Source: a virus (Duplodnaviria; Heunggongvirae; Uroviricota; Caudoviricetes). From it: a stretch of DNA of 4,614 nt. Of this stretch, positions 1 through 3,000 are shown in pieces. Numbering within the stretch: position 1 is the first letter of the stretch; each line of letters opens with the position of its first letter. Made by a program: the position numbers. The stretch is taken from IMG/VR virus record IMGVR_UViG_2703719366_000011. One strand, given 5' to 3'.

Positions 1-3000
1 CTGGCAAGGTAAGAGAGCAGTGTTGTGACGCCTGTGGCTTCTGCACCGGAAGGCGATGACGGGCGCACCTCTGATACTGTCGATGATGCCCCCGCGTTTA
101 GCGCCACTCTTCCCGCATGGCGCAAAATCGCCGTTGCCAGACGGTCGGAAATAATCCCGCGGCGAGCCCATGAACTGAAATGGCTCGCCCTGTCCTGTGA
201 CGTCCAGGTGGCTGAGCTGTCACGCCATTTCGAACCGTAATATCCGATACCCGGAATGTCCGGGTCTTCTTCCGGTTTGTTCGTCGGCACATTCACCCCG
301 TTCTCATCGGTCATGAACGGTACGAAATGGATATTCTTTTCCGTTTTGTTTTTGTAGCTGCCGTACACCGTCTGGTACGAGGATTCGTTCTTCTGCTTCC
401 AGAAATACGTCGTATCTCCACATATCCAGGGAACACCGCCAGCAGAGCCACCGACGCACTGACCTGCCATATCCGCCAGGTCTGCACGGAATTTATCAAC
501 CAGCGCACCAAACTGTGCTGCGTGATTTACCGGCGTACCGCCAAAATCAAATTCCCCCTGCATCCACACCACGGCAAACAGCACATTTTTCGGGTTCTTC
601 TTCAGTGCTGCTTTTGTTCGACCGATAAGGTCCTTATACAGCGGCTTGTCCACACCCCAGCGGGTTGAATTCTCCGAGGCACCACTCGCGTCACTGTATG
701 TGCCATCGGCTCCGGTGGTGAACGCTGAACCACCACGACAGCACGGAACCAGCAGAATGCCCGCATTCGCCGGTATAAACGGCAGCAGTTTTTTGGCGAT
801 ATGCAGCCCTTGCCCCACGGTTCCGTACTGCCCCTTTGACAGGTCCGCTTTCGGATGGTTAAGGCGGCTCATGTCCTGCACATCATGCAGACAATGGTCC
901 GCCGGAATGATGTCGTTATATTTGCATGCTGCACCGCCCGGTGTCACCGTACTGCGGCGCGCCAGCTGCTTAATACGCGGGTCCGGACGGTCATATGTCT
1001 CCGGCAGCGGAAGGCCTTCACCATATGCCATGCTGTTTGACTGCCCCGCCAGAACCACAACAAAGTAATACTCCGTGTCTCTGGTGGCGCTGATTACTGT
1101 GCCTTCTCCATCCGACGGCTTCACCAACACAGGTGTGGTGACATCACCTTCCGCCGCAATGGCCTGCATCAGAGTATAAGGCGTGATGGCCACCGGACTA
1201 CCAAACGGCTGCCAGCCCTCTTTCAGTTTGTGTGTCAGCTTTTCCGCAAGGTCTGACGGCGACGCCGCCCTGACAACATCATAATGTTTAAATGTCATTA
1301 TTCCTCCCGGCCGGGATAGTGTATTAAATCAGATATGGAGTGGGCTGTAGTCCGGAAGCCTGAATGACACACGGGGACTACAGCCCGAAATACGAAAAAG
1401 GCCGCGCAGTTGCGCAGCCTTATGAATCCTGGTTAAAATCCGCACGATAAAAATGACAATGCAAGTATCTCATGCTGTTGCCCGAACCCACTCGGGCTTT
1501 TTTTTGCATGTAAAAAGGCTCCTGCGATGAGGAGCCTGGATATATGCCTAATCTCTGTATACAGCATGATGCCGGGTGCCTCCCGGTGAGTTCGGCCTGG
1601 TGCCACCAAACCCGCGTATTCTCGCTTACGATCATCAAAGAGATCATACCGTTCACCAGTCGCCCCTCCGCACAGGGGGATTCACCATGCAGAAATTTTC
1701 TAACACATCTATTATCAGACCGGCAACAACTGACTGAATTGAGATGTATTTAACATTTATGAATCTCCGCCTGCTATTTTCACTGAGCTATTCTGAGTCA
1801 ACGAAAAATAACTTCGCTGAATCCCCCTCCATTATGACAGGCATTAGTTTTAATGGTTACAGTCATCCCCGTAATTTGCGCACTGAGAAGAAGAGACTGA
1901 AGATTCCATCTGTTGGTAAATAATTCTTTATCACCCACTTTAACTGTAAAGGTATCGTCATCATTATATTTTGTATACTCCACCTTTCCAGTTACACAAT
2001 CAGGCGTCGCCAGCGCACTTGCTGAAAAAAATGAAAGCGATGCAGCTATTAATAATGTTTTTTTCATTTTACCCCCTCAACTGCTAATAGTTCTGCGCAT
2101 CAGAATTGCCCCCAGAGTGGATGAATCCCACAATATTTTATTGTGCGTAATCCCACGGACTCTTCCATCTGCCGGACACATAGAAGGAAACTCATCAGAT
2201 GCCATTCTGGCAACTCGCGATGCATGATGATGACAATTCAGTATTAATGCCACGCTTCCCAGAATTGCATTAATGCTTCCAAAAGAAATTCTTCCTACAC
2301 GAACAGAGTCTTGTCCATGATAGTCAGGCAGGACGCTACTCAACCTTCCCCAGTTCAATGTAAGATCAACATCTTCAGCAGTCATTACATAAGAACGCCC
2401 ACTGAGATCATCCAGTGTTGTACGAAATCCCCTCTGTATTTGCCGAAAACGTAAAGCTTCAGCTGTCACAGTAACAAACCGTAACATCGCTCTTGCCACA
2501 GACTGCGTCAGTGAGGTTCCACTATGCGACATTAAATCCAGATAAGAAGTAGTCAACGAATGGCGATTTATCTGCATCCCCGTACGACTGATCCCTGCAA
2601 CACGCTGTAACGTGGTATAGCTACTGTCACCAGACAATGTAACCGCTGTTGTACCTGGAAAGGTAACATGTGAAAAATCAGCAAAGCGATAAAAAACATT
2701 ATTTGTCCTGTTAACAAATCCTGTCACATATAAATTATTTCGTTCAACAATAAGCCGTAGATTATTAAACCGCCCTTCCTCTGGATCTATCCCTCTGACA
2801 TCAACTGCAAACAAATTATCCCCTGTGCCACTATCAATCATCAGTAAAGACGTACCTCCTGATGAAATAGTCTGTAATGGAGTACCTATTGCAGAGCGAA
2901 TGACATTCAGCGAATCTACATACGTCTTTGCAGTCGAGAAGTCTAAGGTAAATTCCTTCGCCACCACATTAACTGAAAAGATAACAAAGAAAAAAGTTAG

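Follow-up and report, generated by a model that had tools for sequence, protein, structure and literature searches.

Facing terminators downstream of stx1B as the probable 3' ends of two convergent small-RNA genes in a Stx1a prophage

We analysed a stretch of 4,614 nucleotides of Caudoviricetes DNA (IMG/VR record IMGVR_UViG_2703719366_000011; hereafter the window), in which two intrinsic terminators face each other downstream of stx1B. With a probability that we put at roughly 90%, each of these terminators forms the 3' end of a small-RNA gene of its own, and the two genes lie tail to tail in the late region of a Stx1a prophage, with the toxin moron on one side and nanS-p on the other. Both genes correspond to described Hfq-binding sRNA genes of lambdoid prophages, so that the facing terminators were correctly observed but are not new. 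Convergent sRNA pairs between a moron gene and the downstream ORF were described by Tree et al. (2014; PMC4104026) for eight Sakai prophages (Sp3, 4, 5, 9, 10, 11, 15 and 17, both Stx phages included), and a review (PMC7873438) refers to such pairs as 'dyads' that bookend stxAB. The initial annotation of this locus did not identify the arrangement as a published and recurrent feature of lambdoid prophages (PMC4104026, PMC7873438).

Two terminators face each other across six nucleotides

On the plus strand, sequence inspection and a terminator scan placed a GCCCGA-ACCCAC-TCGGGC stem-loop at 1480-1497 (stem 6 bp, 5 of them GC; loop 6 nt), directly followed by T8 at 1498-1505, which gives the transcript a U8 tail. 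On the minus strand, the scan returned a terminator, T1 (1512-1537), consisting of the stem-loop AGGCTCCT-CATCGC-AGGAGCCT at 1537-1516 (stem 8 bp, 5 of them GC; loop 6 nt) and a U5 tract at 1516-1512; T1 also coincides with the last positions of the Rfam STnc100 model. A spacer of 6 nt, GCATGT (1506-1511), is all that lies between the two U-tracts. Both elements have the GC-rich stem-loop and immediate U-tract of an intrinsic terminator, and both fold better than shuffled sequences, with the plus-strand hairpin (1480-1505 including its tail) at -11.1 kcal/mol (z = -3.4) and the T1 hairpin at -13.5 kcal/mol (z = -3.65). The initial annotation had proposed precisely this geometry, a hairpin with T8 facing a hairpin with U5 across a 6-nt gap, and sequence, scan and folding all place the two elements where it had put them. 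A single bidirectional terminator was rejected as a description of the site. Such terminators likewise stop both directions of transcription within a few bases of one point, but they consist of a single hairpin with an A-tract on one side and a T-tract on the other, whereas the window has two hairpins, each with a U-tract and an RNA of its own.

The pair is flanked by stx1B (1798-2067, minus strand; from the ORF list and the annotation of identical phage records), which lies upstream on the strand of the late transcript, and by the conserved downstream ORF nanS-p/yjhS, a sialate O-acetylesterase gene whose 5' part occupies 1-1298 on the minus strand (sequence and annotation of identical records) and which continues beyond the left end of the window. 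A tRNA scan of the whole window gave no match. The terminator scan of the whole window listed 9 sites, compared with 4.3 +/- 2.5 in shuffles. This enrichment is mild, and the case against a chance occurrence therefore leans on the recurrence of the tail-to-tail layout and on the ends of the Rfam matches, which stop exactly at each terminator (STnc100, E = 6e-45; AgvB, E = 4e-9).

Two further minus-strand hairpins lie between the pair and nanS-p. The first, omitted from the initial annotation, is a second intrinsic terminator, T2 (1388-1421), whose 10-bp stem (1421-1398) precedes UUUUUCGUAUUU (-18.3 kcal/mol; z = -4.1), which brings the number of terminators found by the scan within 140 bp to three. 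The stem of T2 covers, on the opposite strand, the -35 element of the plus-strand promoter described below, and it is kept in three of four sequence variants through G-U pairs that can form on the minus strand only. The second, H3 (1342-1386), is a long hairpin that follows T2 and precedes the ribosome-binding site of nanS-p (-27.2 kcal/mol; z = -6.1); every copy retains it, and it shows two two-sided compensatory changes as well as G-U pairs consistent with the minus strand. Rfam also returned Leu_leader matches at 1339-1425 (plus) and 1394-1506 (minus), which scored 28 and 22 bits where the gathering score is 50, and we dismissed these as a chance likeness to a hairpin plus a terminator-like hairpin.

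The plus-strand RNA is of the EcOnc03 type

The plus-strand terminator had been taken to imply a plus-strand transcript running towards it, and this expectation was borne out, as the terminator forms the 3' end of an sRNA (1446-1505) identical to EcOnc03, for which a mapped primary 5' end and northern bands of 56, 54 and 51 nt are on record in strain Sakai. The gene consists of a variable 5' segment, GAUAAAAAUGACAAUGCAAG (about 20 nt), a conserved middle, GUAUCUCAUGC, and the terminator; in the AgvB/AsxR class the target is specified by a variable 5' segment of 14-18 nt. Its 1446-1505 sequence is identical to the copy in prophage Sp9 of E. coli O157 Sakai, with gene and promoter together essentially identical and the right-hand terminator of Sp9 nearly so; the published EcOnc03 sequence corresponds to window positions 1451-1501, the EcOnc03 northern probe to 1478-1445, and a CLASH read from the EcOnc03 5' end to 1446-1489. 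Rfam assigned the segment 1445-1504 to AgvB with 56.6 bits, a very small margin over the gathering score of 56, and the AsxR match, at 46.8 bits, was under its gathering score of 63. The gene resembles AgvB, AsxR and EcOnc03 (RF02702, RF02703) in its length class (60 nt, within the 51-60 nt of the AgvB/AsxR class), its promoter element, its terminator and its place in a convergent pair behind a moron gene, lying between stx1B and nanS-p with the reverse terminator 6 nt away. The conserved 3' part of ~42 nt, which includes the GCCCGAACCCAYTCGGGC terminator and the U-tail, is identical to that of EcOnc03 and nearly identical to those of AsxR and AgvB.

Upstream of the gene we recognised a putative promoter at 1410-1439 (plus strand) with TTGCGC at 1410-1415, an 18-nt spacer and TAAAAT at 1434-1439. 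Because TTGCGC-N18-TAAAAT matches the consensus at only 8 of 12 positions, it was absent from the list returned by a consensus scan. Transcription probably starts at G1446, 7 nt downstream of TAAAAT, as judged from RLM-RACE data published for the identical gene in Sp9 and from the CLASH 5' end.

The behaviour of the RNA is documented in print for the identical Sp9 copy. Tree et al. (2014; PMC4104026) reported EcOnc03 as crosslinked to Hfq, with triphosphate 5' ends and the three northern species given above; its Hfq binding and its destabilisation without Hfq are given in Table S2 of the same paper. EcOnc03 ranks with the most abundant Hfq-bound RNAs, and it forms CLASH hybrids. By identity with the Sp9 gene, the plus-strand RNA would be expressed in the phage type of the window as well. 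Within the AgvB/AsxR class, which owes its name to the antagonism of a core-genome sRNA through base pairing, such antagonism has been demonstrated only for AgvB on GcvB and AsxR on FnrS, and the name 'anti-sRNA' is extended to EcOnc03 by analogy with these two tested relatives. In contrast to both, EcOnc03 has no validated sRNA target: none was found in the accessible parts of the published literature, in which the RNase E CLASH tables give mRNA and rRNA hybrids only. The published CLASH partners of EcOnc03 are enriched for cation-transport genes (mntH, fieF, bfr), and in the window the gene adjoins the Fur-regulated stx1 operon. Its setting also differs from those described before, since here it sits directly behind stx1AB, whereas the published EcOnc03 belongs to the toxin-less Sp9; the left-hand partner in the Stx1 phage of Sakai itself is another one, of the EcOnc08/21/42 type.

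The minus-strand unit belongs to the STnc100 family

T1 closes a unit (1506-1758, minus strand) that Rfam matched to STnc100 (RF02076) at 1719-1506 with 190.7 bits (E = 6.2e-45; gathering score 47), covering the model in full (positions 1-206 of 206), terminator included; six related phage loci scored between 158 and 208 bits. This family comprises EcOnc27/sRNA103, EcOnc28, EcOnc13 and PasD, and its members have been described as discrete Hfq-associated RNAs, namely EcOnc27 (235/247 nt), EcOnc13 (~187 nt) and EcOnc28. The EcOnc13 probe has an exact counterpart at window positions 1696-1730. Beyond the Rfam match, the conserved block opens at AAATGTTAAAT, at ~1758, irrespective of the sequence upstream of it, and its length of 247 nt here (1758-1512) compares with 243 nt in the copy of a Stx2a phage and 246 nt in that of Sp9, in agreement with the published 235/247-nt bands of EcOnc27. 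The unit occupies the position that EcOnc27 has in Stx2 phages, after stxB and before nanS-p, but the copy in the window is distinct in an internal variable arm and in a 4-nt deletion in its 5' part (CAGTTG----TTGCC). Functional leads within the family concern the Stx2 copy only, and consist of effects of its overexpression on fimZ and espA, together with an association with SNPs that predict HUS.

The initial annotation had described the stretch between stx1B and T1 as an unusually long 3' UTR of about 260 nt, and thereby missed its identity, as it consists of ~40 nt of stx1-specific sequence and the conserved sRNA unit of ~247 nt. One could still hold that T1 is merely the terminator of the stx1AB mRNA, that 1537-1797 is its long 3' UTR and that the small RNA is a fragment of the toxin mRNA. 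T1 is the first terminator past stx1B, Hfq-binding sRNAs derived from 3' UTRs are an established class, and a promoter scan listed no sigma-70 promoter on the minus strand at 1740-1800. Furthermore, the conserved block begins near the expected start of the published 247-nt RNA, and there is therefore no conserved promoter upstream of it. Neither the scan nor a comparison of the copies revealed a recognisable conserved promoter for the unit: TGTTAAAT at 1755-1748 (minus strand) is a weak extended -10 at best, and a conserved TTGACA within the unit lacks a usable -10 at 16-18 nt and is broken here by the 4-nt deletion. The RNA may therefore be processed from longer transcripts instead of being made from an independent gene. 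Two observations speak against its being a mere piece of toxin mRNA. The conserved block also occurs downstream of stx2B and, in Sp9, where no toxin gene is nearby, directly after a tRNA gene and a hairpin resembling a terminator, and in Sp9 the RNA is nonetheless bound by Hfq as EcOnc28. STnc100 is also curated as an RNA family and occurs in many prophages (PMC13192938). From the toxin-less copy and this wide occurrence it follows that the unit predates the insertion of stx1 and is independent of it, although it may still be fed by toxin transcripts. We thus regard the 3'-UTR explanation as a serious competitor, but one with appreciably less than an even chance, and we retain the reading of two separate sRNA genes.

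The region has also been annotated as protein-coding. An open frame is present on the minus strand at 1647-1420, and two RefSeq reference phage genomes list it as a 75-aa 'hypothetical protein' (BP-4795 ORF42; YYZ-2008 gp41). This frame, however, crosses the STnc100 terminator and, in antisense, the entire anti-sRNA gene before it stops within T2. An internal T-tract is between 6 and 9 bases long in copies that are otherwise nearly identical, and there are further indels, so that frameshifts would be expected. Most other records annotate nothing here, and neither do the RefSeq E. coli matches listed. That the segment encodes a protein is, in our view, hardly credible.

The convergent layout recurs across prophages

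We found the region in 1304 of 5426 complete E. coli genomes, with a median of three copies per positive genome. A census of 123 anti-sRNA copies resolved them into four discrete types of 5' segment with one common promoter, the promoter segment being conserved before all four; the 5' segment of the window is of the EcOnc03 type, which has one SNP variant in 23 copies. A reverse terminator follows the anti-sRNA after 4-9 nt in every copy (123/123). At least three unrelated left-hand partners face the same kind of right-hand terminator, and in the equivalents of T1 elsewhere the stem sequence differs while the hairpin is retained, with G-U pairs that are functional on the minus strand only.

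These data bear on whether the pair might be nothing but a two-way transcriptional insulator between the toxin moron and the lysis module, with short transcripts that are functionless by-products. The crowding of three terminators into 140 bp would fit such a role, and the reason for the arrangement is called unclear in PMC7873438. An insulator, however, would account neither for a conserved promoter before the plus-strand RNA nor for four discrete and internally invariant 5' types, a pattern expected of target-specifying segments. The validated targets of AgvB and AsxR, and the abundance of EcOnc03 among Hfq-bound RNAs together with its CLASH hybrids, likewise speak against functionless by-products, and late transcription crosses the region in any case. 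We therefore give pure insulation very little weight.

Discussion

In the mechanism that we favour, with a pair of sRNA genes at its centre, the weak sigma-70 promoter at 1410-1439 would drive an Hfq-binding RNA of ~56-60 nt from G1446 to the T8 tract, the first 20 nt of which would be the variable, target-specifying part. Its hairpin and U-tail would serve a dual role, as transcription stop and as the usual Hfq-binding 3' module. On the opposite strand, the STnc100-family RNA of ~247 nt would terminate at 1537-1512. Each terminator would spare the other gene from antisense transcription by its own polymerase. T1 is the first intrinsic terminator 3' of stx1B in the terminator scan and should therefore also stop transcripts from Pstx1; it is likely the stop for those that are not antiterminated, halting them in lysogeny. 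Our literature search found no direct documentation of Pstx1 transcripts terminating at 1512. Pstx1 was undetectable in the strain of Sy et al. (2020, PNAS), and Term-seq data for strain Sakai are deposited as GSE143631. Q-modified polymerase from PR', on the other hand, would be expected to pass both T1 and the 1421-1398 terminator and to continue into nanS-p and the lysis genes.

The PR'-tR' transcript StxS (Sy et al. 2020, PNAS) offers a parallel, as it too binds Hfq and is defined by an intrinsic terminator, which Q-modified polymerase overrides. StxS is present in the window (read match at 3313-3272), and together with the pair it 'bookends' stxAB. Unlike the pair, StxS is located upstream of the toxin genes; it originates at the late promoter, undergoes trimming by RNase E and lacks a convergent partner.

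The tight tail-to-tail layout could in addition be a regulatory device and not an accident of descent. During lysogeny the two terminators would then be active and the anti-sRNA produced. Upon induction, Q-modified polymerase from PR' would override T1 and make a full antisense RNA to EcOnc03 across its promoter, so that the anti-sRNA would be shut off by transcriptional interference and duplex formation; T2, placed on the -35 element, would bound the antisense RNA during read-through without Q. The 4-9-nt spacer in 123/123 copies, the variety of at least three left-hand partners and the wobble pairs of T2 on the late strand are compatible with such a device. Simple inheritance of one module may, however, also account for the census data on spacer, partners and T2, and we consider a device improbable.

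Altogether, our analysis indicates that a functional sRNA pair can be recovered from terminator geometry by sequence alone, and it adds no new biology to the two RNAs. Its practical use lies in annotation: in all 25 of the 25 RefSeq matches listed nothing is annotated under the match, and the reference genomes of BP-4795 and YYZ-2008 carry a probably spurious ORF over the region in which the two sRNA genes probably converge.

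Two small RNA genes end tail to tail downstream of stx1B

The window comes from a Stx1a-converting lambdoid phage and corresponds to its late region, in which the minus strand carries every gene: the antiterminator Q (3980-3531), stx1A (3024-2077), stx1B (2067-1798) and nanS-p/yjhS, which starts at 1298 and is cut off by the left end. Its segment 1250-1850 was 100% identical to BP-4795, YYZ-2008 and many phages described as "Stx1a-converting", and 80-90% identical to most Stx2 phages. The initial annotation had placed a plus-strand and a minus-strand terminator face to face in this segment, 6 nt apart, and all of its coordinates proved correct by sequence. 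The plus-strand terminator consists of the stem-loop GCCCGA/ACCCAC/TCGGGC (1480-1497) followed by T8 (1498-1505), and the minus-strand terminator of AGGCTCCT/CATCGC/AGGAGCCT (1537-1516) followed by five U (1516-1512), with the spacer GCATGT (1506-1511) between the U-tracts. Folded alone, the hairpins reached -11.1 kcal/mol (z = -3.4) and -13.5 kcal/mol (z = -3.65), respectively, relative to dinucleotide shuffles. Since a terminator scan of the whole window returned only about twice the number of terminator-like sites expected by chance, the case for both terminators rests on family matches and conservation.

A search against all Rfam families found a named RNA behind each terminator. On the plus strand, 1445-1504 matched AgvB (RF02702) with 56.6 bits, barely above the gathering score of 56, and the sister family AsxR (RF02703) with 46.8 bits, under its gathering score of 63. 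Among the new Hfq-bound RNAs that Tree et al. (2014, PMC4104026) detected in E. coli O157 Sakai, EcOnc01 (AgvB), EcOnc02 (AsxR) and EcOnc03 were the most abundant; they are 51-60 nt long, with a conserved 3′ part of ∼42 nt and a variable 5′ part of 14-18 nt. Positions 1451-1501 are the published EcOnc03 sequence, 1478-1445 its northern probe, and 1446-1489 a CLASH read starting at the EcOnc03 5′ end; from the promoter through both terminators, the window matches the toxin-less Sakai prophage Sp9 base for base except for a few SNPs. Judged by its sequence, the plus-strand RNA is thus identical to an RNA of Sakai that is known to be expressed, to bind Hfq and to depend on it. The terminator observation is therefore real, and half of its earlier interpretation, that a plus-strand transcript must run toward this terminator, was a correct deduction.

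Two sRNA genes hence end tail to tail at this site, an arrangement that is already known as a recurrent feature of lambdoid prophages. Genes of this class were reported to sit "within convergent sRNA pairs", in the stretch from a moron gene downstream of the late promoter PR′ to a conserved phage ORF, in Sp3, 4, 5, 9, 10, 11, 15 and 17 (PMC4104026). A later review named the pairs "dyads" and described stxAB as "bookended" by dyads and StxS (PMC7873438).

The segment behind stx1B is an STnc100 unit

On the minus strand, 1719-1506 matched the whole STnc100 model (RF02076; 190.7 bits, gathering score 47, E = 6e-45), and the match terminates in the 1537-1512 hairpin and U-tract. Within it, 1696-1730 corresponds to the probe for EcOnc13, the STnc100-type RNA of Sp3. 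Stx2 phages could be aligned to the window only up to ∼1744, and the conserved block always started with AAATGTTAAAT (1758-1748) across 21 distinct upstream contexts, which include stx1B, stx2B, a tRNA-Arg gene and others. Measured from AAATGTTAAAT to the U5 tract, the block of the window is 247 nt long, against 246 nt for Sp9 and 243 nt for a Stx2a phage; the published northern bands of EcOnc27, 235 and 247 nt, are of similar size (PMC4104026). Because the block start is constant in all contexts, the 286 nt from the stx1B stop codon to the end of the U-tract are made up of ∼40 nt of stx1-specific sequence and a pre-existing sRNA unit. The "long 3′ UTR" of the initial annotation consequently does not hold as a description, and it retains some merit as an account of how the RNA is made: a conserved promoter before the unit was not found by a promoter scan or among the 21 aligned versions, and the STnc100 RNA may be its own transcript or be trimmed from longer ones, including the toxin mRNA from the stx1 promoter (Pstx1).

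Compared with most of the 21 versions, the copy in the window lacks 4 nt at ∼1727-1732 (CAGTTG----TTGCC), and with them a TTGAC(A/T) motif that is full in most versions and partial in a few. Overexpression of the Stx2 copy of STnc100 increased fimZ and espA transcripts, and SNPs in this copy were among the HUS-predictive features of a machine-learning study. A 75-aa "hypothetical protein" in RefSeq (BP-4795 ORF42, YYZ-2008 gp41; 1420-1647, minus strand) is probably a spurious call; its frame crosses the STnc100 terminator and, in antisense, the entire plus-strand anti-sRNA gene, and it includes a T-tract whose length differs among copies (6 to 9).

The convergent arrangement is conserved while its partners vary

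Scanning a viral contig collection with the terminator of the anti-sRNA (the plus-strand gene) yielded 123 copies, whose 5′ segments were of the AgvB (59), EcOnc03 (23), AsxR (16) or a fourth type, CGAUUAUAAAAAUGUAU (23), with two copies left untyped where contig ends interrupt them. This fourth type (L009, L016, L017, L027 and 19 others) equals the EcOnc03 type in frequency, and its 5′ segment had no counterpart among the EcOnc sequences and probes compared. All four types share a TTGCGC-N18-TAAAAT promoter segment. In 123 of 123 copies, an A-run and a GC-rich hairpin came 4-9 nt after a tract of 6-9 T, forming a terminator for the opposite strand. The sequence of this hairpin varies by type (GGCUCCU/AGGAGCC, GGCCUCU/AGGGGCC, GCCCCUC/GAGGGGC) and the fold is kept throughout, with weakened pairs becoming G-U on the minus strand. 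Of 5426 complete E. coli genomes, 1304 contained the region, the median number of places in these being three, and 0 of 25 among the matches listed had an annotated feature under it.

The plus-strand partner can also be a different RNA. In the Sakai-type Stx1 phage, AP005153, as in several Stx2a phages, this partner matches the EcOnc08/21/42 probe and ends in a different terminator. A third kind occurs in Shigella phage POCJ13 and in phage SH2026Stx1, both of which share 99% identity with the window rightwards of ∼1495. Homology with some Stx1 phages ends at ∼1495, in or beside the plus-strand terminator, after which another left-hand sRNA gene follows. In all of these phages a plus-strand terminator still adjoins the minus-strand one, so that the junction behaves as a module boundary, and it may also mark a site of recombination.

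Additional RNA elements and possible target pairing

A further minus-strand intrinsic terminator, T2, had been overlooked: a 10-bp stem (1421-1398, -18.3 kcal/mol) followed by UUUUUCGUAUUU, spanning 1388-1421. It exactly overlaps the -35 box of the opposite-strand promoter that serves the anti-sRNA gene. All four types of anti-sRNA locus keep T2, and in three of its four sequence variants the stem is retained by G-U pairs possible only in the minus-strand RNA. No mention of T2 was found in the literature searched. Between T2 and the nanS-p ribosome-binding site lies a long minus-strand hairpin, H3 (1342-1386; -27.2 kcal/mol, z = -6.1), kept in 123 of 123 related copies; between the window and Sp9 it shows two compensatory changes that each alter both pairing bases (U-A to C-G, A-U to G-C) and also G-U pairs fitting the minus strand. 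No U-tract follows H3, which may stabilise the 5′ end of an mRNA or serve as a processing site.

StxS is an sRNA derived from the PR′-tR′ transcript. Its published CLASH read matches 3313-3272 on the minus strand (region 3250-3313), where the tR′ hairpin (∼3253-3278, GCCAGCC...GGCTGGC, then T6) escaped the terminator scan owing to its 9-nt loop. Another terminator-like hairpin (3485-3466, minus strand) lies just past Q, near the expected PR′ start.

In RNase E CLASH tables, EcOnc03 hybrids include ompC, eptB and rRNA, among others, and cation-transport mRNAs (mntH, fieF, bfr) are enriched; EcOnc03, AgvB and AsxR each hybridised with eptB (ECs4425). The middle segment conserved in all three (GTATCTCATGC, 1465-1475) has 11 nt of perfect complementarity to a site in the Sakai eptB coding region. 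This suggests that the three RNAs have eptB as a common target through their conserved part, and that target pairing is not limited to the variable 5′ part.

A possible role of the facing terminators

Given what is generally known of intrinsic termination, of sRNAs that bind Hfq and of antitermination by Q in lambdoid phages, we infer that each hairpin and U-tail would both terminate its own RNA and provide that RNA with an Hfq-binding 3′ module, and that each terminator would guard the partner gene against antisense transcription. In lysogeny, the minus-strand terminator, backed by T2, would keep Pstx1 transcripts from reaching nanS-p and the lysis genes, and all these terminators would be overridden by Q-modified polymerase.
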